Source of the DNA: a virus
IMG/VR virus record: IMGVR_UViG_3300021185_002756
Span: 1-64,000 of that record
Length of the DNA stretch: 64,000 bases
Direction: 5' to 3' (one strand)
Positions 3,568 to 50,520 of this stretch are shown here, one piece after another. The stretch's first letter is position 1; each line of letters begins with the position of its first letter. A model generated the notes under the pieces. The model saw nothing but the letters and a program-made list of their open reading frames with translations. It was not told the DNA's origin and did no database searches. The position numbers and the translations under genes were made by a program.

Positions 3568-3670
3568 TGGCTCTGGGGGTAGGAGTCGAACCTACAAGGT
3601 TAAATATATTGCAGTACATTCAACCACACGGTTAACAGCCGTGCGTGTTTACCAATTTCACCACCCCAGA
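3568..3670 (-). tRNA. tRNA-Asn(GUU) with unusually long (31-nt) class-II variable arm, CCA encoded
   Basis: Acceptor TCTGGGG/CCCCAGA, G73, CCA; D-arm GTG-AAATTGGTAAA-CAC; anticodon arm CACGG-CTGTTAA-CCGTG; variable region T-GGTTGAATGTA-CTGCAA-TATATTTAACC-TT; T-arm GTAGG-TTCGACT-CCTAC. Confidence 0.9.
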
Positions 3671-3676
3671 TTATTC

Positions 3677-4507
3677 TTATACCTTGTTGATTTTTTCTAG
3701 TGCAGGGATCATACGTGTAACACCTATGCCTCCGCCTACTCTTTGAAAGAAGTCAAACTCTAAAAACTTTTCTAGTTCTGCTTCAACTCTTTCCTTACCA
3801 AACAGTTTGAATAGTAACTCTGCATACTCTCCGCCTACAATACTATGGAATGTATCTCTCATCATATCAACATCACATGAACGTTCTGCTGATCCAATAG
3901 TTTCCATACCACCTAGTATAACATCCATCTTCTTTGCAGTATTGCCATCATCATTTCTAGCCATGTTCCAAAATGGGCTTGTTAGTTCGGGGAAGTTTGT
4001 AATAAGTGTTTGACCAAACTGTTCTTCCATCTTTAGTTCGTGTTCTGCTTCCATTTCTACGTCAGTACCGAGTCCAAAGTGTTGTTGCCATTCAGCATAG
4101 GTCTTTTCTGTAATGTTGCCAAAGCCTAAGTATTCACATAGTTCATACTCCATTGCTTTTAGATCATCTACATTACCTGGCATTTCAAATTCAAACATTG
4201 GAAATATTATATCGTGTCTACCTGGAATTGCATTTGGTTCCTGTCTGTAGGAAGTTGAGACACAAAAAAAGCCCTTTGCTGAGGGCTGACTTAGTAATTC
4301 ATGTTCTAACCACATCTGGCCTGTTTGTGGTAGTGGCCAAACATTGCCTGCATAGTTGTAAGTTGCTACATTGAATGGATCTTCGCATGCGGCTAGTATT
4401 GATAATCTGTTTTGTGTGTGTACTTCAAGAAATCCTTTTTCCAAAAAAAATGACCTTAAAAGGCCAACTGTCTCTGTGAATTTACTTGGGTCTATTAGTT
4501 GCGTCAT
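3677..4507 (-). CDS. class II aaRS catalytic core (AsnRS/AspRS paralog, archaeal AsnA-like) lacking the anticodon-binding domain
   Basis: Motif 1 RSFFLEKGFLEVHT starts at residue 18; LPQTGQMWLE; motif 2 SYRQE..RH..FPMFEFE; MDVILGGMETIGSAER; motif 3 GGGIGVTRM. Only 276 aa, no room for an OB-fold. Confidence 0.85.
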   Translation of the reverse strand: MTQLIDPSKFTETVGLLRSFFLEKGFLEVHTQNRLSILAACEDPFNVATYNYAGNVWPLPQTGQMWLEHELLSQPSAKGFFCVSTSYRQEPNAIPGRHDIIFPMFEFEMPGNVDDLKAMEYELCEYLGFGNITEKTYAEWQQHFGLGTDVEMEAEHELKMEEQFGQTLITNFPELTSPFWNMARNDDGNTAKKMDVILGGMETIGSAERSCDVDMMRDTFHSIVGGEYAELLFKLFGKERVEAELEKFLEFDFFQRVGGGIGVTRMIPALEKINKV

Positions 4508-4522
4508 TGCTTTTCCTTTTTT

Positions 4523-4552
4523 TGCCTAAAAAAAATTTGCCCAAAAAAAATT
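4523..4552. repeat. 15-nt tandem repeat in the 5' leader of the aaRS-like gene
   Basis: TGCCTAAAAAAAATT followed by TGCCCAAAAAAAATT. Confidence 0.8.
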
Positions 4553-4580
4553 GGACGTTACTTGTTCATCGAGTTATTTA

Positions 4581-4664
4581 TTATAGTTTGCCTTTTCCTG
4601 ACAAATACTGTACAGTTGGCTGTGGCTTGAACCATCTTTGTAATAGTTTCTCTAACCAATTCAT
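4581..4664 (-). CDS. 27-aa small protein
   Basis: MNWLEKLLQRWFKPQPTVQYLSGKGKL, preceded by RBS AGGAGAG. Confidence 0.5.
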   Translation of the reverse strand: MNWLEKLLQRWFKPQPTVQYLSGKGKL

Positions 4665-4675
4665 ATCTTACTCTC

Positions 4676-5143
4676 CTAAAACTTATTCAAAAATCTTGCT
4701 ATGTGGTGCACCCATGGCAACAACATTATAGCCATAAACATGTTGGCACCTGTGTGTGCTATTGCTATCCTAAGTGTATCGCCTTTGGGCATACCATCGC
4801 TCACAAAAAAACCGGCTAACCAAATGGTGCCGGTGGTTCCGATGTTTGCGCCTAACACTGCCGCTATGGCTGCGGGCAGAGGCAATGCCCCTGAGGCTAC
4901 CAGTGCAATTATTGCCGTTGTACTTAAACTTGAACTTTGCCAAAGCAGTGTCATTACAATACCACCAAGGAACATATAGATTGGATTGCCCAAAAAGAAG
5001 TTCAAATGTTCCAAGTTACCCATTGACTTCATGCCACCTGAGAACATCTTCAGCCCTATATAAAATACTACCAGTCCAACAAGAGCCGTCATTATGGGAT
5101 TGCCTAAGTCCATCCTACACACCTTTTTAATAAGTTTGTTCAT
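4676..5143 (-). CDS. Na+/phosphate cotransporter family protein (single repeat)
   Basis: GLKMFSGGMK, WQSSSLST and GANIGTTGT signatures of the NptA/SLC34 repeat. Confidence 0.85.
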   Translation of the reverse strand: MNKLIKKVCRMDLGNPIMTALVGLVVFYIGLKMFSGGMKSMGNLEHLNFFLGNPIYMFLGGIVMTLLWQSSSLSTTAIIALVASGALPLPAAIAAVLGANIGTTGTIWLAGFFVSDGMPKGDTLRIAIAHTGANMFMAIMLLPWVHHIARFLNKF

Positions 5144-5182
5144 TTATAGTTCCTTTTACAAACTTTATTTAAGCCTATAAAT

Positions 5183-5200
5183 GTTACAGTTTTATTACAT
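5183..5200 (-). promoter_or_regulatory. Pho box (PhoB-binding direct repeat)
   Basis: ATGTAAT-AAAA-CTGTAAC versus consensus CTGTCAT-A(A/T)A(T/A)-CTGTCA(C/T); about 40 nt upstream of the Na/Pi transporter, with TTAAAT 10 nt downstream. Confidence 0.65.
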
Positions 5201-5791
5201 TTGGGTAATTTGCTTATAAACTTCCAACCAATTTTTACATATTGGATAATCAACATCTGCATTCATGTTGTGTCCATGTTCAATCAGTATAGGCTTTAGA
5301 CCAAATCTCAAACCAGCAGTTGCATTTTCAACTTTGTCCTCTAACCAGTAACAGTTTGAACCTGCATACTTGCTCAGTGCTTCATCTTTGTCTGCACCTG
5401 TGTCTAAACATACCAGTTTAGTAAAAGCAGTTTTACCAAACATTTTTTGTAGATTCATTTCACGCAGTTTGTATGCATTTTCATCGAGACTTAAACTTGT
5501 TATGCATATAAATGTATAACCATGTTGTTCATGTAGTCTTTTGACCCAGTACATTGCATCTCTCAGTACTGGTAGAAATCCTATTGCGGCACTTTCATTA
5601 AAGGTCTTAACAAGTTTTTTTACTTGCTCTTTTGGAATACCATAACGTTCAGCCATATCATATTTGAACTGGTATCCTTCTGTAGTTTCAAATCCATGTT
5701 GTATCATCCAACAATTGAATGCCCACTCCCAATCTAGTAGTACACCATCGCAGTCTGTAAGTATTGTTTTTTCGTATTTGTTATATTTCAT
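5195..5791 (-). CDS. HAD-superfamily 5'(3')-nucleotidase-like protein
   Basis: TDCDGVLLDW motif I, ITS motif II, K, WLEDKVEN motif IV. Confidence 0.8.
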   Translation of the reverse strand: MKYNKYEKTILTDCDGVLLDWEWAFNCWMIQHGFETTEGYQFKYDMAERYGIPKEQVKKLVKTFNESAAIGFLPVLRDAMYWVKRLHEQHGYTFICITSLSLDENAYKLREMNLQKMFGKTAFTKLVCLDTGADKDEALSKYAGSNCYWLEDKVENATAGLRFGLKPILIEHGHNMNADVDYPICKNWLEVYKQITQM

Positions 5792-5809
5792 TTACATCTT
5801 TCTTTCTAT

Positions 5810-6022
5810 CTATATTGTCATCGGCAACTTTGGATACGGTGTTGCTATACCGTTTTGGTTGTCTAAGTACGTGCATATAAACTCTAGCATTACTGATTCA
5901 TGCATGGTCAAATAATAATCCAATGCTTCAAAACCAATTGCATCTTCGTAAACAAAATCATGTATGTAGTTTTTGCTAACGTAATCTTCTATTGCTAATC
6001 TTTCAGTTGCTATTGTAAACAT
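5810..6022 (-). CDS. hypothetical early protein
   Basis: MFTIATE start behind RBS AGGA and an early promoter. Confidence 0.5.
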   Translation of the reverse strand: MFTIATERLAIEDYVSKNYIHDFVYEDAIGFEALDYYLTMHESVMLEFICTYLDNQNGIATPYPKLPMTI

Positions 6023-6049
6023 GTGTTTCCTTTTTCTTATTATGCTGTT

Positions 6050-6084
6050 ATAATAACACACTTTAAGAATAAGTCAACCTTTTT
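6050..6084 (-). promoter_or_regulatory. early sigma70-type promoter
   Basis: AAAAAGG-TTGACT-N16-TATTAT. Confidence 0.75.
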
Positions 6085-6120
6085 CTACGATTTGGCATAA
6101 CTATCATGCTAAATAAACAT

Positions 6121-6166
6121 ACGTTCACCCGAGAGGGCGGAAGTAGGCAATCGCTGAAGGAACGCA
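6121..6166 (+). ncRNA. glutamine riboswitch (glnA RNA motif)
   Basis: CGTTC-A-CCC GAGA GGG-CGGAAGTA-GGC AATC GCT-GAAGGAACGC: P1 CGTTC/GAACG, GNRA-capped P2, CGGAAGTA..GAA E-loop and P3, as in the glnA consensus. Confidence 0.85.
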
Positions 6167-6196
6167 CCTAACCATTTACTTAGGGAGGGTGGCAAA

Positions 6197-6310
6197 ATGA
6201 CTTACAGACCATATCAATGGAAGAAGTTTGCTGACGCACGGAAACGTGCTCTAGTTCATAAAATACTGAACTATCGCAAATCGTCTTGCATATGCAAAAA
6301 AGCTAGTTAA
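6197..6310 (+). CDS. 37-aa basic peptide downstream of glutamine riboswitch
   Basis: Not in ORF track. RBS GGAGG at 6184; MTYRPYQWKKFADARKRALVHKILNYRKSSCICKKAS. Confidence 0.7.
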   Translation: MTYRPYQWKKFADARKRALVHKILNYRKSSCICKKAS

Positions 6311-6458
6311 CTTCGACGACCTTATGGAAGGGGAATACTCGAGGTTTGGTGTTTTTAATCATTTCCATGTATTCCTCTGCCTCTTTTCTAGTTTCTAATT
6401 TTGCAATTGTTACTGGATCTTCGACACGTGGTTCGTACACAATATTAAATGTCTTCAT
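6303..6458 (-). CDS. 51-aa hypothetical protein
   Basis: MKTFNIVYEPRVEDPVTIAKLETRKEAEEYMEMIKNTKPRVFPFHKVVEVN, coupled to 6445..6687. Confidence 0.55.
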   Translation of the reverse strand: MKTFNIVYEPRVEDPVTIAKLETRKEAEEYMEMIKNTKPRVFPFHKVVEVN

Positions 6459-6687
6459 TGTTCATTTCCCAAACATTATACACATCTGAGAATCCCATAT
6501 TCATTGGCGAATATTCACCAACATTTTCTTCTTGCCATGCATGTATATCAACCCATTGTTCTGCAGTCAGTTCGTCAATATCTTCAATTTCATAATGATT
6601 GCATATTGCAGTTTCAACACAACTATATGCTTCTCTTTCAATATGCTCTTCGTCTTTGTACATTCTTGCCCAGTCAAATTTAGTCAT
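6445..6687 (-). CDS. hypothetical acidic protein
   Basis: RBS AGGAGG; part of an operon. Confidence 0.6.
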   Translation of the reverse strand: MTKFDWARMYKDEEHIEREAYSCVETAICNHYEIEDIDELTAEQWVDIHAWQEENVGEYSPMNMGFSDVYNVWEMNNEDI

Positions 6688-6868
6688 TGTTAGCCTCCTT
6701 TAATATTTGTTTACGTCCTTCTACACCAATCTGTGAGTCCATCATTGTTTTAACATGTTGTAACATAGCACATGCCATCATCAGTATATCTTCTTTGCTA
6801 TCACACATTAGTATTTGTTGTTCTATAGGCCGGCACAGTTCCCTCATTCGCTCTTGAACTTCTGTCAT
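6680..6868 (-). CDS. hypothetical protein
   Basis: RBS GAGGAG; overlapping start/stop with neighbours. Confidence 0.55.
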   Translation of the reverse strand: MTEVQERMRELCRPIEQQILMCDSKEDILMMACAMLQHVKTMMDSQIGVEGRKQILKEANND

Positions 6869-7410
6869 TTTGTTATCTCCTCTTGAGTTATGTGTAATTC
6901 CTGTTTCATATCATCTGAGTTAAGATACGTTAAGTTAATAATACTCGCAAAACCAACTACCCTTGCTTCTGCTTGTTCTACTAAACGTTTTGTTGCTAAC
7001 ATACTTCCGCCAGTTGCAACTAAATCATCAACAATAAGAACTCTATTTGCATGTCCTAGTAAGCCTTCTTGTAGCACCAGTGTGTCTTCACTGTATTCTG
7101 TGCCATAACTTTCTTCTAACAAACTACCGGGATACTTTGAACCTTTTTTACGTACCATTATAAACGGCACACCAATAACACTTGCTAACACTGCACCAAC
7201 TGCAAAGCCTCTGCTTTCAATCCCAACAATGTGTGTTATCTCACTGTTTGTGTTGAACAGTCTTTGTATTTCTACTGCCAGTTCAGCGGCAACTTGATTC
7301 CACACAGGTTGTGCAAACAAACTGTTAACATCATAAAAGTTTACACCCTCAACCGGATAGTCCATCACAGTCCTCATGTAGTCTGTTGGCTTAGTTTTTT
7401 CTAAAGACAT
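6865..7410 (-). CDS. apt: adenine phosphoribosyltransferase
   Basis: DYPVEGVNFYD, GIESRGF, VRKKG, YGTEY, PRPP motif VLIVDDLVATGGS. Confidence 0.9.
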   Translation of the reverse strand: MSLEKTKPTDYMRTVMDYPVEGVNFYDVNSLFAQPVWNQVAAELAVEIQRLFNTNSEITHIVGIESRGFAVGAVLASVIGVPFIMVRKKGSKYPGSLLEESYGTEYSEDTLVLQEGLLGHANRVLIVDDLVATGGSMLATKRLVEQAEARVVGFASIINLTYLNSDDMKQELHITQEEITK

Positions 7411-8521
7411 ATACACCCTCCCACTTTTCTCTACCTTGTTTACGATCATTACCCACACCCGGACGTGTGTTCAACATCATTTTAATTATTCCATCATGTT
7501 TGAAGCCGACCTTCTCTGCGGTTTGGATCCACCTTTCCGTGACTTCGTAAGGCTCGGGTCGATCATAGCTCTTATAGTCTGCGATGTTGGTGGCGAATAC
7601 TCCGTCACTGTTGAGCCCTTTGCGAATGTTTTGCATAGTCGGAGCAACATAGCCTTCAAACCATTCATCTTCAGTTTTAAACTGTACCATGCATTGTGTT
7701 TCTTCATTTGAATACTTCTCCAAGTTAAAATAAGGAGGTGAACTGAATGCTAGGTCTATATCCTCAGGTTGATAATTTTCACTAACATCTTGTACGATAG
7801 TGCCTCTTACACCGGTTGCTTCGTCTATTACATCATTCAAATAATTCAAGTATGCAACTGTTTCAGTGTTGGGTTCAACTCCTATGTAATTGTACTTAAA
7901 GTTGCTTGAGCCTATGCCTAATAATCTACCACCATAGCCACAACTGTAATCATACACATTGCCCCAAAGCACAGGGCACAGATGTTCTACTATTGCTTTG
8001 GCATTTTGTGCTTTGAAGTTAGTAACGTTCTCACCTGTGACTAATTCAAGTGCAGTTCTTAACTGTGTTGGACGTAACAATCTATCACCTGTTCTAAACT
8101 CAAAACAAATTCTAATTGCACGTTTAAGTTTGCGTTCATCAAAGAATCGATCCTTTAAACTGTTTGATCCTCTGCCTTTAGGTTCAGCAGTCATCATATT
8201 AGGAAACAAAAATCTATTGATTGTTTGCCCTCTGTTGTTGCCCAGTCCAATTTTTCCGTTGTCTACATTGTTATAGGATAACTTGCTAAACTTACGTACT
8301 GCATCAACCAATCCTTGGTGGGTATAATACACAATAGGAACTAGATCAATACTACGATATATGTTGTATACCTTTTCTATTGTTCCTTGTGGGTCAGCAT
8401 CATACTGTGCTTTATCAAAGGCGTCTAATTGATCGTAGACACTTTCATAACCAGTGAACTCGCCATCGATTATGTGCATTGATGATATATTCCAGATATC
8501 ATGTAATTGATCAATTACCAC
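7391..8521 (-). CDS. SAM-dependent amino-methyltransferase (DNA N6A/N4C MTase-like)
   Basis: YDYSCGYGGRLLG SAM-binding motif and FSSPPYF catalytic motif. Confidence 0.75.
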   Translation of the reverse strand: MVIDQLHDIWNISSMHIIDGEFTGYESVYDQLDAFDKAQYDADPQGTIEKVYNIYRSIDLVPIVYYTHQGLVDAVRKFSKLSYNNVDNGKIGLGNNRGQTINRFLFPNMMTAEPKGRGSNSLKDRFFDERKLKRAIRICFEFRTGDRLLRPTQLRTALELVTGENVTNFKAQNAKAIVEHLCPVLWGNVYDYSCGYGGRLLGIGSSNFKYNYIGVEPNTETVAYLNYLNDVIDEATGVRGTIVQDVSENYQPEDIDLAFSSPPYFNLEKYSNEETQCMVQFKTEDEWFEGYVAPTMQNIRKGLNSDGVFATNIADYKSYDRPEPYEVTERWIQTAEKVGFKHDGIIKMMLNTRPGVGNDRKQGREKWEGVYVFRKN

Positions 8522-8931
8522 GTAAATTTTATCTCCGCATATGCTTCATCTTGTTTAACAGTAATAGAACCAATGTCTTTCCAACTGTATGATAAGCCAT
8601 CAAACGAAGATGGATTTACAATAAGTTTATGGTCTGCTTGAAACTTCCAATACATTTTATTCTTGCTCTTAAGAACTACCTTTTGCTTGAATGTTTTTGC
8701 ACGTTGCGGAAACTTACTATCATTGCTACTTTTTGTTTCACTAGGCCCAACAATACTAAAACCATATTTAATTTTGTTTAAGACATATCCGTTAATTGTA
8801 TCATCAACTTCATAGTGCTTGTACAATCTCTGTGATACTTCTTCAATTGCTTTACTTGGATTATTAGTTGTAAATTCCTGTCCAAATACCATTGTGGGTA
8901 GCAGAAATAATATTGCAATAATGTATTTCAT
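8515..8931 (-). CDS. secreted/outer-membrane hypothetical protein
   Basis: Signal peptide MKYIIAILFLLPTMVFG; C-terminal aromatic residue. Confidence 0.5.
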   Translation of the reverse strand: MKYIIAILFLLPTMVFGQEFTTNNPSKAIEEVSQRLYKHYEVDDTINGYVLNKIKYGFSIVGPSETKSSNDSKFPQRAKTFKQKVVLKSKNKMYWKFQADHKLIVNPSSFDGLSYSWKDIGSITVKQDEAYAEIKFTW

Positions 8932-9188
8932 TATGCAGATGCCAATTCTACGCCTGCATCAAACATGTTCCATGCATCGCCATTGTTCTTAAAACCATAT
9001 TCCTCTGCAAAATCCATTGAGCTACTATGCATCAATCTATCAGCAACACCTCTTGTTTGAAGAATGTATGCAACCATTTTTGGTGTCTTTGCAAAACCAA
9101 CTGTGTTAAGTTGTCCAAGTTCGTCATTTCTACCACCGTAAAACTTAATACCACCGTTATCAGCACTTATAAAATCTATCTTTGTCAT
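8931..9188 (-). CDS. hypothetical early protein
   Basis: Behind an early promoter with the conserved leader. Confidence 0.6.
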   Translation of the reverse strand: MTKIDFISADNGGIKFYGGRNDELGQLNTVGFAKTPKMVAYILQTRGVADRLMHSSSMDFAEEYGFKNNGDAWNMFDAGVELASA

Positions 9189-9194
9189 CTAGCT

Positions 9195-9253
9195 CTCCTT
9201 ATTTCTAACTATACATATATAATAACACAGTTATAGAATAAGTCAACCTTTTT
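9195..9253 (-). promoter_or_regulatory. early promoter plus conserved leader/RBS
   Basis: AAAAAGGTTGACT-N16-TATTAT-ATATGTATAGTTAGAAATAAGGAG. Confidence 0.85.
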
Positions 9254-9264
9254 CTGCATTTAGG

Positions 9265-9492
9265 TTAGTCTAAAAATTCTATTATTTCTATCATTTTACT
9301 AAGTTTTTCTTGTGCTAAACGTTTGTTTGATGCTGGTACCCATGCCTGTCCTAAGCCATGTTCTTCGTCTACTTTGTTTAGTTCTAGTGTGATACGTTCC
9401 TTGCCAGTCTTACGCATCTTTAGTGGTCGTGGAGCAGTAAATTTAAGTATGAATACTTGTTCACGTGGTTTAAATTCTAATACTTCACCCAT
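9265..9492 (-). CDS. hypothetical protein
   Basis: Coupled to the clamp loader gene. Confidence 0.5.
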   Translation of the reverse strand: MGEVLEFKPREQVFILKFTAPRPLKMRKTGKERITLELNKVDEEHGLGQAWVPASNKRLAQEKLSKMIEIIEFLD

Positions 9493-10408
9493 TGATCTGC
9501 GATAGCTCTACCATAGTTGCACTTAGATTAATTTCTGGATCTGCTACGAAACTGTGATTAACAAGTCCTGTACGTATTGCCATAATAGCACTGTCTTGTC
9601 CTTCTGGAGTAGTACTGAACAGTTCTAAGTTGTCATACATCCAACGAAATACATCTTCCATCTCTTCTGGACGTACAGTTGCACACATAAGTTTACGTGC
9701 TTCAATGATCTTGCCTGCTTTGAACAAGTTTACTGCATCAACCCGCCAGTCGCTTGTGTTGCCTTCATCGCCCTTTACGTTTGTAAGTTTGCCATCTGTG
9801 CTGTTCATCTGACACAGATTCAAACACTTACGTAGATCTGGATAGGTGCTACGTACATATGTGTCCAGTGTTTCGATATCAAGTTCAACATTCTCTGCAA
9901 CCAGCACAGTGGCAATACGTGCAGTAAACTCTGTCTTGTCTACTTTCTCAATATGAAAGCCTTGACATCTACTATGCAATGCAGGGATAACTCTGTTTGG
10001 ATAGTTACAAGTTAGTATGAACCTTGCACTAGCATGATAGGTTTCCATAACACCACGCAGTGCCGCTTGTCCATTTGGCGATATATAGTCAGCCTCATCT
10101 AACAGTACAACCTTGAAGTCACCAAATGGCATTGTTTGTACAAATCCTGTGATCTTATCACGTATTGTGTCAATTGAATTTTCTCTTGATGCGTTTATTT
10201 CTAGCACATCAAAGTCATCTATTTCAAGTTGTTTGATCAGTATCTTTGCCAGTGTTGTTTTACCTACACCAGGTGCACCTGAGAATAACAAGTGCGGAAT
10301 AGCACCTTCATCTATCCAAGTTTTTACTTGTGCTTTTTGTTCTGCATCACGGAACACATATCCGTCGATGTCATCGGGCCTATACTTTTCAGTCCACAGT
10401 TGCTTCAT
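9485..10408 (-). CDS. sliding-clamp loader subunit (RFC small / T4 gp44-like AAA+)
   Basis: LWTEKYRP, GAPGVGKTT, EINAS, LLDEAD, LHSRC. Confidence 0.92.
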   Translation of the reverse strand: MKQLWTEKYRPDDIDGYVFRDAEQKAQVKTWIDEGAIPHLLFSGAPGVGKTTLAKILIKQLEIDDFDVLEINASRENSIDTIRDKITGFVQTMPFGDFKVVLLDEADYISPNGQAALRGVMETYHASARFILTCNYPNRVIPALHSRCQGFHIEKVDKTEFTARIATVLVAENVELDIETLDTYVRSTYPDLRKCLNLCQMNSTDGKLTNVKGDEGNTSDWRVDAVNLFKAGKIIEARKLMCATVRPEEMEDVFRWMYDNLELFSTTPEGQDSAIMAIRTGLVNHSFVADPEINLSATMVELSQING

Positions 10409-10430
10409 ACAATACTCCTAATTTGTACAT

Positions 10431-10460
10431 AGTATACAGGTATTATTTAGGTAAGTCAAC
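10431..10460 (-). promoter_or_regulatory. sigma70-type promoter for the clamp loader
   Basis: TTGACT-N17-TATACT. Confidence 0.7.
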
Positions 10461-12074
10461 CAATTCTGGAAAACTATCTAATAGGTTTGCTTTATAGTAT
10501 TTGTCTAGAGGCAAGATATTTTGCCAAAAGTCTTTACTATCAAAAGCAATAGTTGTATCTAGTTGTGTAAGGATGCTTTCAAAGCCCTGAGTTGCTCTAC
10601 CTTCGTTATCAAGCGGACGTAACCATTCAAGATGATTATTAATTTTTTCTCTTATCTGCACACGTAAGGCGGGTGGAGCAGTTTCAACTCTCATCCATTC
10701 AGGCCAGTGTAGTGTCTGTATACGAAACTGTTCAGGTTTTATTAGACCTTTTTCTGTCCAACTGCGGTGAAAGTCTGGCACATGTAATACATTAATAAGA
10801 CTTGTTGTACTACTGATATAAAAATCTATATCAGGACGTTGATCCAGCATTTCACGCCTAAAGTCTAATACATCTTGCCATACTGTTCCAGTACGTAGAT
10901 ATGCTCCTCTTTCGCCCTCTGCGTCAAGACTTGCACCAATGGATATGTTTTTAAAATTTTTCCATGCATCAAAGATACTGTGTCCTTTTAGATGCGAACG
11001 TGTCATATTAGTATTATATATCAATTGGATGTCATGACGATGTCTTAGATTTAATTCAGCGAGTATCTTGTAGTTTTCTGGCATCATCAGTGGCTCGCCG
11101 CCGGCAAAGTATATCCTATCAATATTATCTAGTTGTTCAACTATTTGATCATACAAATCTGTGTTGTTTCTACCTGCTTTAAGGAATACTGGTGTAGACT
11201 TGTCAATTAAACCAACTGCAACTGCTGGAGCATGCCAACTACTTGACGATCCGTGAACACAACTACGACAACTCAAATTACAAAGATTATTAAATCTTGA
11301 ATCAATGAATTTTAAATTATACTCGGGCGTGATATTTTGTTCGACAAGGTCTACGTGCTTTGCAAACGTAGTATTCATTGATGTTCTAAAACTTTCTTTT
11401 CCAAGTTTTTCAGCTCGCATACATTGTTTACATCCGTCACTTGGCAGATCATTTAGCATTCGTTTTCTTAAATTTTGATATGGTTTATCGTTCCAAATGT
11501 CTTTAAGGCTGTCTTTACTGCAATCACCAATTGACTCTCCATTCCATGCACAACACGGTGCAACACCATTTTTGGTATGAATGTATAAACTTGTCCAAGG
11601 AATTATACAGAAATTTTTATTTTTAAATAGTAGATCTCTTTGTGCTTTTGTAAGTTTTGATATCTCTTCACTTCGATGATTGACACTATTTGTTTTTGTA
11701 TATGGTCTGATATCACCTGCTGGTAATCTTTCAAAATTGCCTGCAATAGATTGTATTTTAAATGTTGTAGGGTCAGTACTATATGTTTTATGCACATAGC
11801 GATATTCTTCATGAATTTTATTATTAGTTGTTACAAGACAGATAAAACAATTACTAATATCAATATGGTTAATAATAGTTTGTAAACTTTGTAATATTAA
11901 GCCATGTGAATCTTTGTAAAAATCATTGGTTAATTTTATTACAATTTTTTGATTTGATTCAAAGGCTGGTTGATGTAGTGCTTTCAGTGCAAGATATAGA
12001 TCAACAAAGTTATCTTTGTAATGATCGCAATCAATTGTTCCTACAATCTCATCGCTGGTAAATGTCAATTGCAT
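10443..12074 (-). CDS. radical SAM protein with twitch/SPASM-like Cys cluster
   Basis: CNLSCRSC (CxxxCxxC), FAGGEP, YNTN; upstream FCIIPW..PCC..CKQC. Confidence 0.85.
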   Translation of the reverse strand: MQLTFTSDEIVGTIDCDHYKDNFVDLYLALKALHQPAFESNQKIVIKLTNDFYKDSHGLILQSLQTIINHIDISNCFICLVTTNNKIHEEYRYVHKTYSTDPTTFKIQSIAGNFERLPAGDIRPYTKTNSVNHRSEEISKLTKAQRDLLFKNKNFCIIPWTSLYIHTKNGVAPCCAWNGESIGDCSKDSLKDIWNDKPYQNLRKRMLNDLPSDGCKQCMRAEKLGKESFRTSMNTTFAKHVDLVEQNITPEYNLKFIDSRFNNLCNLSCRSCVHGSSSSWHAPAVAVGLIDKSTPVFLKAGRNNTDLYDQIVEQLDNIDRIYFAGGEPLMMPENYKILAELNLRHRHDIQLIYNTNMTRSHLKGHSIFDAWKNFKNISIGASLDAEGERGAYLRTGTVWQDVLDFRREMLDQRPDIDFYISSTTSLINVLHVPDFHRSWTEKGLIKPEQFRIQTLHWPEWMRVETAPPALRVQIREKINNHLEWLRPLDNEGRATQGFESILTQLDTTIAFDSKDFWQNILPLDKYYKANLLDSFPELVDLPK

Positions 12075-47357: not shown

Positions 47358-47480
47358 TCATTTTATTGTTTGTTTCTTTCTGTTATATGAACCTTTGCCC
47401 TTTTTACTCGCAACAACGGCGGGCTTGATTGTTCTAACCACTCGTGCTATTGGGTTCATTGGTTTCGTTTGCTTTTTCAT
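47358..47480 (-). CDS. ArfA-like ribosome rescue peptide
   Basis: Not in track: MKKQTKPMNPIARVVRTIKPAVVASKKGKGSYNRKKQTIK (alternative start 47459); KKGKGSY.RK is the ArfA signature. Confidence 0.65.
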   Translation of the reverse strand: MKKQTKPMNPIARVVRTIKPAVVASKKGKGSYNRKKQTIK

Positions 47481-49712: not shown

Positions 49713-49938
49713 AAGCAGTTCTCCTATTTTCTAACTGTATATACATATTAACACAGTCTACACTATTGTCAACCTTTTTATATAAAAAGAATAATAAAAT
49801 TGCATTCATGCTAGATATAGTGTAATAAAATTAAATCAAGTCGATTAGTGCTAAAAAAGCAAGACTGTTTTTACAAAAAACGGCTCTTAAATAGCCAAAA
49901 AACTTGGTTTTTGATTTTTGCCTTGTATAAATAAAAAT

Positions 49939-50040
49939 GTAGCAAGAAACTGTTACAAGGCACCTGGGAAAGACCAAGTGGCGGCGGGAACCAGACCGCG
50001 GTATTGCTCCCCTCAAGCATATAACATTAACTAGGAGAAA
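49939..50040 (+). ncRNA. candidate structured 5' leader (four hairpins)
   Basis: GC-rich island after TATAAATA: GTAGCA/TGTTAC, CACCTGG/CCAAGTG, GCGG/CCGC and TGCT-CCCCTCA-AGCA. Confidence 0.5.
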
Positions 50041-50043
50041 AAA

Positions 50044-50202
50044 ATGGCAAAAAAGCTATCTAAAAACCTTGTGGCAATGTTTCGTAAGATGTTTGACACA
50101 AGATCACCACAAGAGAAGTATCTGTCACAGAGTGCAGACTTATGTGATTTAGAGTATCGTATGAGACGATTACACACAACAATGGGAAAGTTAGGATTAT
50201 AA
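50044..50202 (+). CDS. DUF3563 family small protein
   Basis: Not in track: ..EKYLSQSADLCDLEYRMRRL..; RBS AGGAG. Confidence 0.75.
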   Translation: MAKKLSKNLVAMFRKMFDTRSPQEKYLSQSADLCDLEYRMRRLHTTMGKLGL

Positions 50203-50203
50203 A

Positions 50204-50404
50204 ATGACTGCGTTAGTAATGAATACAATGAGTTCAATGGAATCAGTACTTAGAACACTAATTACAGGTTATGCAATAGCAACTGGTAAGATTAAACAAC
50301 GTATGATCGAAAACAGAACTAGACAAGCACTTGCATATCTCAGTGATAGAGAACTTAAAGATATTGGATTAACACGAGATCAATTAGAAAGAGGTCAGTT
50401 CTAA
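50204..50404 (+). CDS. DUF1127 (YjiS-like) small protein
   Basis: RTRQALAYLSDRELKDIGLTR. Confidence 0.9.
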   Translation: MTALVMNTMSSMESVLRTLITGYAIATGKIKQRMIENRTRQALAYLSDRELKDIGLTRDQLERGQF

Positions 50405-50520
50405 TGAGTATACTTAGAGCAATAAGCAATTTTTGCATCCATATTGGACAAGCAAGAGCAGATAGAGAATTAGCAACCATGGAGTTGTATTATGAAACAA
50501 GGGAGGAAAATAAATGGTAA
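50404..50520 (+). CDS. 38-aa small protein
   Basis: MSILRAISNFCIHIGQARADRELATMELYYETREENKW; TAATG overlap with the upstream gene. Confidence 0.6.
   Translation: MSILRAISNFCIHIGQARADRELATMELYYETREENKW

Follow-up and report, generated by a model that had tools for sequence, protein, structure and literature searches.

A glutamine riboswitch and a conserved 37-codon gene in a relocating cassette of marine phages

Results

Layout of the locus

The DNA analysed here (the window) comprises the first 64,000 nucleotides of the 98-kb IMG/VR virus record IMGVR_UViG_3300021185_002756. From 3677 to ~26.9 kb the credible ORFs of the window lie on the minus strand, with the sole exception of a 37-codon ORF at 6197–6310 (plus strand), which a first-pass annotation had singled out as a lone plus-strand unit within a minus-strand block. 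Our survey agrees with that description; the other plus-strand ORF in this region (6890–7108) overlaps a minus-strand phosphoribosyltransferase gene. Reading through positions 5900–6600, we found all the elements that the annotation had listed around the ORF in their places. A T4-type late-promoter-like box, GCTAAATA, occupies 6108–6115 (TAAATA within it is 6110–6115) and is followed by a glutamine aptamer at 6120–6168 and by the ribosome-binding site GGAGG at 6184–6188. The ATG at 6197 is 8 nt from GGAGG and 28 nt from the aptamer. Comparison by blastn with loci of sister phages (see below) delimits the promoter box, the riboswitch and the micro-ORF as a self-contained plus-strand cassette at 6046–6309, with a core at 6075–6309. 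No terminator was found in the window 3' of the 37-codon ORF.

On the minus strand, a sigma-70-like promoter at 6050–6077 (TTGACT, 16 nt, TATTAT, with an upstream TG; 10/12 matches) overlaps the left edge of the cassette and faces left, toward an 83/70-aa ORF at 5810–6061. Read on the plus strand, these bases give TGTTATAAT, an extended -10 motif.

The aptamer

A cmscan search of the whole 64-kb window against the 4227 families of Rfam 15 gave two matches that exceed the curated cut-offs. One of them is RF01739, placed at 6120–6168 of the plus strand with a score of 53 bits (gathering score, 35) and covering model positions 1–53 of 53; its E-value is 8e-9 in the whole-window search and 1e-10 in a local scan. 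The alignment contains a core of three helices, P1 (6122–6126 paired with 6160–6164), P2 and P3, joined by the conserved junction strands CGGAAGUA and GAAGGAACG. The conserved junction bases are all intact, and C6165, directly 3' of P1, is available for a long-range G–C pair. By its predicted fold, 6120–6168 is a genuine type-1 glutamine riboswitch, as the first-pass annotation had supposed in naming a glnA-type aptamer. It is the only RF01739 match in the 98-kb record, and a permissive scan of 5800–6600 returned no second aptamer at E ≤ 1. Two Rfam models had been put forward for this leader. The glnA model matched; the glutamine-II (Downstream-peptide) model, RF01704, did not, giving nothing at its gathering score in the window and nothing at E ≤ 1 in 5800–6600.

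The novelty that had been implied for such an RNA in a phage was overstated. Glutamine riboswitches are known in the cyanophage S-CREM1 and others (PMC9964418), and RF01739 has been reported in the OM43 phage Melnitz, the Pelagibacter phage Mosig and pelagimyophage contigs and MAVGs (PMC9004378); where these two papers take up the riboswitch, they credit it to general nitrogen genes or to a tmRNA/lysis function. RF01739 is also present in SAR86 and Pelagibacter MAGs (PMC12379486). The aptamer class, its occurrence in phages and the logic of its expression platform are already known. In the literature we found no paper describing the peptide family or the mobility of the cassette.

RF01739 was found in 2 of 151 sampled gammaproteobacterial species. 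One of the two belongs to a gammaproteobacterial order with streamlined genomes (~1 Mb), in which 64 of the 151 genomes sampled carry it above the cut-off, often in tandem. The aptamer in that order mostly precedes genes for type-I glutamine synthetase (GS; Pfam-confirmed), for a 323–336-aa protein that is probably a type-II GS and for a secreted protein resembling a porin; a single instance has tandem aptamers of the CATCT/AGATG design before a gene for a 43-aa basic peptide. The association of this riboswitch with GS reaches beyond cyanobacteria and is general for this RNA. In the GS leaders of the order, a GTTAAAC...GTTTAAC hairpin replaces the anti-ribosome-site helix described below, which suggests a different expression platform.

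The peptide gene

Searching viral contigs with the back-translated N-terminal codons of the peptide alone, we retrieved 40 loci, and an aptamer lies directly upstream of the ORF in every one (40/40). The ORF is complete and 31–37 aa long in 39 of them and ends at the contig edge in the remaining one. The family, which we refer to as MTYRP, comprises 31 distinct peptides with 12 invariant columns (alignment A1). With the nine codons dictated by the search pattern set aside, the in-frame pN/pS is 0.36, compared with 1.10 and 2.76 in the shifted frames (codons 10–27), and every one of the 32 distinct sequences has both other frames closed. Judged by its codon substitutions, 6197–6310 is a real gene under purifying selection. 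The first-pass annotation had described an unannotated ORF behind the aptamer and had suggested looking for homologs behind other glnA matches. The exact sequence is indeed absent from 15 billion predicted proteins, and all loci of the 31 distinct peptides carry the aptamer.

A degenerate aptamer pattern retrieved at least 120 stretches of viral contigs, which yielded at least 123 aptamer matches. Among the matches listed, 114 of 123 aptamers have behind them a micro-ORF preceded by a GGAG-type site, usually after a gap of 20–30 nt and within about 35 nt. The peptides encoded by these micro-ORFs cluster into about ten families, and that of the window falls in one with clear homologs.

Tblastn found no match to the peptide at E ≤ 1 in 50,697 records of isolated phages. 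A profile search of 1.84 billion cluster representatives returned seven small relatives, all unnamed or labelled 'hypothetical'. The family profile, for which the record itself served as the positive control (77.7 bits), gave nothing credible in 266 genomes of the riboswitch-rich gammaproteobacterial order, where the matches reached 17–21 bits, some with internal stops, and were about as numerous as expected by chance; the family was likewise not found in 401 evenly sampled genomes of the same phylum. Two N-terminal matches to the strict pattern in GTDB species genomes were rejected as chance, the ORFs being 14 and 17 aa long and lacking an aptamer. To date, the MTYRP family is known from uncultured marine phages only.

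Two members of the family have unusual settings. In locus L088 (680–930), a 37-aa peptide 86% identical to that of the window stands behind two tandem glutamine aptamers. For a 33-aa member (P0001), the one contig listed is an ENA entry of 140 Mb, a length far exceeding that of a phage or a bacterium, so that it may represent phage DNA within a eukaryote-scale assembly.

Properties of the peptide and its relation to other families

The window peptide contains eleven Lys/Arg residues and one Asp, for a net charge of about +10. Supplied with the family alignment, AlphaFold2 predicts a single helix spanning residues 5–36 (mean pLDDT, 81). None of the 31 family members matches any Pfam model even at E ≤ 10, and no usable relative was found among PDB sequences or in the ESM Atlas. 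The first-pass annotation had connected the peptide with DUF4278 through a TYRG-like start, a connection that failed: none of the 31 members matches PF14105 at E ≤ 10. This negative result is meaningful because the same model recognises the YRG peptides behind other phage aptamers, with 26.5–36.9 bits against a cut-off of 25.3. YRG repeats do not occur in the window peptide, which has a single YRP at residues 3–5, and hhalign aligned the family with seven phage YRG peptides over 6 columns only (probability, 0.4%). Against an unnamed set of basic micro-peptides with a W..C motif, which are encoded behind other phage glutamine riboswitches (alignment A3), hhalign produced a collinear match of 26 columns with P = 0.002 and a probability of only 13%; single linkage of blastp-short matches groups the MTYRP peptides with this set.

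At least nine further peptide families occur behind phage glutamine riboswitches (loci L002–L121), most of them with no Pfam match. One consists of peptides of 63–65 aa with the conserved core NG.GTSGY..K.G.N.GKVL.H, another of 49–51-aa peptides ending in ..NI(L/T)S.D.RLQ.I, and a third of 46–53-aa peptides that start with MTKYQ and end with NP(F/Y/W)Y. KQQ-rich peptides of 26–32 aa and true DUF4278 YRG peptides are found in the same position.

Expression platform

In the minimum free energy (MFE) fold calculated by RNAfold, the strand CACCU at 6165–6169, whose first base is the 'linchpin' C6165 immediately 3' of P1, pairs with GGGUG at 6187–6191; this partner strand and GGAGG together occupy 6184–6191. 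RNAfold alone misses the aptamer fold, and the energy of the leader is unremarkable (z = -0.78). The helix covaries. Among 97 distinct phage leaders, 76 have a helix of at least five contiguous pairs starting from the linchpin C, and the mean run from this base is 4.64 pairs, compared with 3.56 ± 0.16 after tails and ribosome-site regions were re-paired between leaders with different tails (0 of 200 permutations reach the observed value). The covarying pair sets include CACCT/GGGTG, CACTT/GAGTG and CACTTT/GAAGTG, as well as CATCTTT/GGAGATG, CAATCTT/GAGATTG and CATTATC/GGTAATG. The partner of the linchpin C lies 1–5 nt ahead of the start codon in most leaders. A 5-bp helix in this register is lacking in 21 of the 97 leaders, so other platforms exist.

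The first-pass annotation had placed an expression platform over the ribosome-binding site, in agreement with this covariation. It had proposed a pairing of GCACC (6164–6168) with GGTGGC (6188–6193), which is the correct region, whereas the register that covaries is CACCU 6165–6169 with GGGUG 6187–6191. It had also noted a CCTAA/TTAGG hairpin overlapping GGAGG, and such a hairpin can indeed be drawn at 6167–6184, between CCUAA (6167–6171) and UUAGG (6180–6184), the last base of which is the first of GGAGG. The hairpin and the anti-ribosome-site helix are mutually exclusive and, when stacked on the aptamer, have energies of -3.9 and -4.5 kcal/mol, respectively. Of the 17 family leaders, 14 can form an alternative hairpin of at least 4 bp; across the whole set of leaders its mean length is 4.11 versus 3.44 ± 0.09 in shuffled controls, and there is little true covariation. 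The CCUAA/UUAGG hairpin is a possible ON-state fold.

The 28 nt between the aptamer and the ATG contain no terminator, which points to control at initiation. A model for this control has been proposed for the gifB leader of Synechocystis: with glutamine bound, the C located 3' of P1 is engaged in the long-range linchpin pair, whereas in the free RNA this C and the following bases pair with the ribosome site, in a helix that glutamine would melt (PMC6212724). By analogy, in the absence of glutamine C6165 and the next four bases of the phage leader would pair with GGGUG; the ribosome site would then be hidden in its 3' half, along with some of the spacer, leaving the peptide untranslated. Once L-glutamine is bound, C6165 would be taken into the long-range G–C pair of the aptamer and the short helix would melt; the CCUAA/UUAGG hairpin may then form, and the ribosome site would be freed for synthesis of the peptide. 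If glutamine binding frees the ribosome site in this way, the unit would be a glutamine-ON translational switch, a direction for which gifB is the precedent: reporter fusions of gifB and of Prochlorococcus rise with nitrogen (for gifB, ammonium; PMC6212724). A real aptamer, a platform at the ribosome site and a conserved micro-ORF, taken together, indicate that the phage very probably couples synthesis of the peptide to host glutamine.

A putative late promoter

Most members of the family have the box TATAAATA 6–13 nt upstream of the aptamer; in the window and in three related loci (L130, L131 and L149) the equivalent place is taken by GCTAAATA. The 98-kb record contains ten copies of GCTAAATA. 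Five of the ten are strictly intergenic (P = 0.001, given that 9.3% of the DNA is non-coding), and for another three the next start on the same strand is no more than about 50 nt away. Genes with such GCTAAATA-proximal starts include a tail-spike-like gene and others of the structural region, and a further copy at 95626 is located inside the probably over-extended ORF start of a virion-structural gene. CTAAATA, starting at -12, is a documented late promoter of the T4-like phage Aeh1 (PMC1524935). With C6109 set at -12, the predicted start of transcription falls at about A6121, one base before P1; the transcript therefore probably starts near this position, and GCTAAATA would serve as a late promoter. 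Elsewhere in the window, at 49926–50520 (plus strand), a series of micro-ORFs, DUF3563 and DUF1127 among them, comes after a TATAAATA box.

Relocation of the cassette among sister phages

Four of the retrieved loci, L129, L130, L131 and L149, come from sister phages, whose proteins are 80–98% identical to those of the record within blocks that run collinear with its segment 69–92 kb. Blastn aligned L149, the closest relative, with 6046–6309 of the record (98% identity over 264 bp), L129 and L131 with 6075–6309, and L130 with 6073–6278; the length of the cassette is 235–264 bp. All four sisters carry it at the equivalent of record position 76497/76498, a junction that is uninterrupted in the genome of the window, where the cassette lies 70 kb away. 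The sister-phage cassette is flanked on one side by a bidirectional terminator hairpin and on the other by the stop of a ClpX-like gene that converges on it; the stop codons of the peptide and the ClpX-like gene overlap. The corresponding stretch of the record, 76440–76560 (L122:12440–12560, beyond the window), is an empty site in which the terminator hairpin directly precedes the ClpX-like stop. The cassette of L149 is 98% identical to that of the window, compared with 80–88% for the flanks, and the ClpX-side site of L149 holds 29 bp of window-type upstream flank (6046–6074). The left boundary of the cassette falls within the right arm of the terminator hairpin. The unit is thus a relocating cassette, which explains the presence of a lone plus-strand gene in a minus-strand block.

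Beyond the closest relatives, no synteny is conserved across the family. The genes neighbouring the cassette are typical of marine T4-like myophages and encode UvsX/RecA, ThyX, cell-wall hydrolase and ClpX-like proteins; the immediate neighbours in seven subgroups mostly have no Pfam match and are of unknown function.

The phage genome

CheckV estimates the 98-kb record (GC content, 37.8%) to be 28% complete, so the full genome would be roughly 350 kb. Megablast of window positions 4000–12000, L129 and L139 against 50,697 isolated phages returned no match. A search of the record for a T4 gp23-type capsid protein gave no match, and neither did its control. Other features of the window include a stretch at 3571–3670 (minus strand) that scores 56 bits with the Rfam tRNA model and has a 29-nt insertion at the position of the variable arm, with ARAGORN reporting no tRNA in the window; a 40-aa ArfA-like ORF at 47358–47480 (minus strand; 24.8 bits); and a 155-aa ORF at 4676–5143 (minus strand) that matches the first two-thirds of one Na+/Pi-cotransporter repeat (PF02690, 60.7 bits) and is, going by this match, a much-shortened transporter-like membrane protein.

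Discussion

The ~250-bp cassette brings together a T4-type late-promoter box, the type-1 glutamine riboswitch and the 37-codon gene, and is in our judgement probably a glutamine-ON translational switch for a micro-protein. The basic single-helix peptide might be a small regulator, acting late in infection, when nitrogen is plentiful, by binding to some host macromolecule.

Among the readings that compete with this one, we regard as highly improbable a switch that works in the glutamine-OFF direction, or an aptamer that is a relic, with constitutive synthesis of the peptide from the late promoter. The two alternative helices differ little in energy, and structural work on the glutamine-II class is said to have been read as sequestration of the ribosome site upon ligand binding. 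However, all conserved positions of the aptamer are intact and its score is well over the cut-off, the blocking helix at the ribosome site depends on the same C as the ligand-bound fold and covaries, and the gifB and Prochlorococcus reporters respond to nitrogen in the opposite sense. A different question is whether the phage infects a marine picocyanobacterium, so that the cassette would simply be a cyanophage's copy of a nitrogen module of its host. The GC content is compatible with such a host, an AsnRS-like neighbour gene is 67% identical to those of the Prochlorococcus phages P-SSM7, P-SSM2 and P-SSM5, and a tail-fibre segment matches Synechococcus phages at 67–74% identity. Yet NrdA is closest to that of roughly 350-kb jumbo phages of Gammaproteobacteria (57–61%), with cyanophages ranking lower. 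Three families that are mainly proteobacterial are encoded in the record: DUF1127 (43 bits), DUF3563 (28.8 bits) and the ArfA-like peptide, whose 24.8 bits compare with a cut-off of 25.5. In addition, psbA was not found in the 98 kb that represent 28% of the genome, photosynthesis families are absent from the 25 commonest Pfam families near the cassette (40 loci), and none of the isolated phages, cyanophages included, encodes the peptide. On balance a cyanobacterial host appears somewhat unlikely, and we lean toward a marine proteobacterium. The first-pass annotation had likewise favoured a non-cyanobacterial host, which remains plausible, but the gene affinities are mixed. Given the occurrence of RF01739 outside cyanobacteria, such a host would be unremarkable for this RNA.

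The target of the peptide admits more than one reading as well. It could be a functional analogue of the inactivating factors IF7 and IF17, restoring feedback inhibition of GS at high glutamine after host shut-off. IF7 is small and very basic, as is the MTYRP peptide; true DUF4278 peptides are driven by other phage glutamine riboswitches; and in the streamlined gammaproteobacterial order RF01739 stands mostly before GS. In Synechocystis, IF17 itself is regulated by this riboswitch class, and in Prochlorococcus DUF4278 peptides resembling IF17 are under glutamine riboswitch control (PMC6212724). Nevertheless, sequence comparison links the MTYRP peptide neither to DUF4278 nor to any PDB chain, and no GS gene is found near the cassette in any locus examined, so that we consider this role unlikely. 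Complex prediction for the peptide and two subunits of a stand-in marine gammaproteobacterial GS gave a score of 0.00 in a run without controls, which counts neither for nor against binding. Only slightly less doubtful is a target outside nitrogen assimilation, with the peptide serving as an arginine-rich, RNA- or ribosome-binding helix, or in the timing of lysis, and glutamine as a read-out of the late state of the cell. The late-promoter-like box ahead of the cassette and the single, highly basic predicted helix would fit this reading, and among genes near the cassette the family seen most often is a cell-wall hydrolase (Pfam Hydrolase_2; 7/123 neighbours); the authors of the Melnitz paper speculate on a link between the riboswitch and lysis (PMC9004378). 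Against it, the Hydrolase_2 gene is not an immediate neighbour in the subgroups checked. A holin, at any rate, is ruled out, the peptide having no hydrophobic segment in its sequence.

Under the preferred reading, a glutamine-ON switch for a late micro-protein, one might go further and view MTYRP and perhaps half a dozen other unnamed families as phage effectors of nitrogen status that have spread as a plug-in cassette of promoter, sensor and effector. We give this broader proposal little credence at present. If it were true, such effectors would be made only in glutamine-rich hosts, would bind and reprogramme a central host enzyme or regulator (GS, PII or similar) and would act in non-cyanobacterial ocean bacteria, with families behind riboswitches in more than 100 marine viral contigs.

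Genes under riboswitch control show which host signals a virus heeds. In this case, the sensor was known and the output, as far as we could find, had not been described: a conserved protein of 31–37 residues that gene callers nearly always miss. With the regulated gene identified, the behaviour of marine phages in nitrogen-replete hosts becomes directly testable. The cassette is also a compact natural part, with promoter, ligand sensor and effector in 250 bp, and its relocation between sister genomes illustrates how phages shuffle regulatory modules.

Comparison with known systems

Mobile regulatory cassettes consisting of a promoter and a stem-loop (PeSL) were reportedly described in T4-type phages by Arbiol and colleagues in 2010. 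Like these, the cassette of the window is a short module, running from a promoter to a terminator-like hairpin, that is found at differing sites in otherwise syntenic genomes; unlike them, it adds a late-type box, a riboswitch and a gene of its own. The two kinds of module may share a recombination mechanism.

The closest functional parallel is the gifB (IF17) unit of Synechocystis (Klaehn et al. 2018, PMC6212724), which has the same RF01739 aptamer and linchpin-C platform. Both outputs are small proteins, that of gifB being regulatory and its published behaviour glutamine-ON. The window unit differs in being phage-borne and preceded by a T4-type late-promoter box, whereas gifB belongs to NtcA-regulated host transcription; in encoding a 37-aa product, predicted to form a single helix, with no DUF4278 domain, compared with the 149 aa of IF17; and in behaving as a mobile cassette. 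The riboswitches of Melnitz, Mosig and S-CREM1 (PMC9964418, PMC9004378) resemble it in belonging to RF01739 and in residing in marine myophages, some with non-cyanobacterial hosts; the accounts of those riboswitches in the two papers describe no downstream micro-ORF, whereas here a conserved regulated gene is identified. Finally, in the Yfr6/Downstream-peptide (RF01704) unit of Prochlorococcus, a glutamine-sensing leader also stands directly before an ORF of ~30 codons, in that instance a 33-codon IF17-like ORF long considered to be a non-coding RNA (PMC6212724). The two units share this arrangement and differ in their parts: the Prochlorococcus unit combines an aptamer of the RF01704 class with a YRG/DUF4278 peptide, and that of the window an RF01739 aptamer with a peptide of the MTYRP family.
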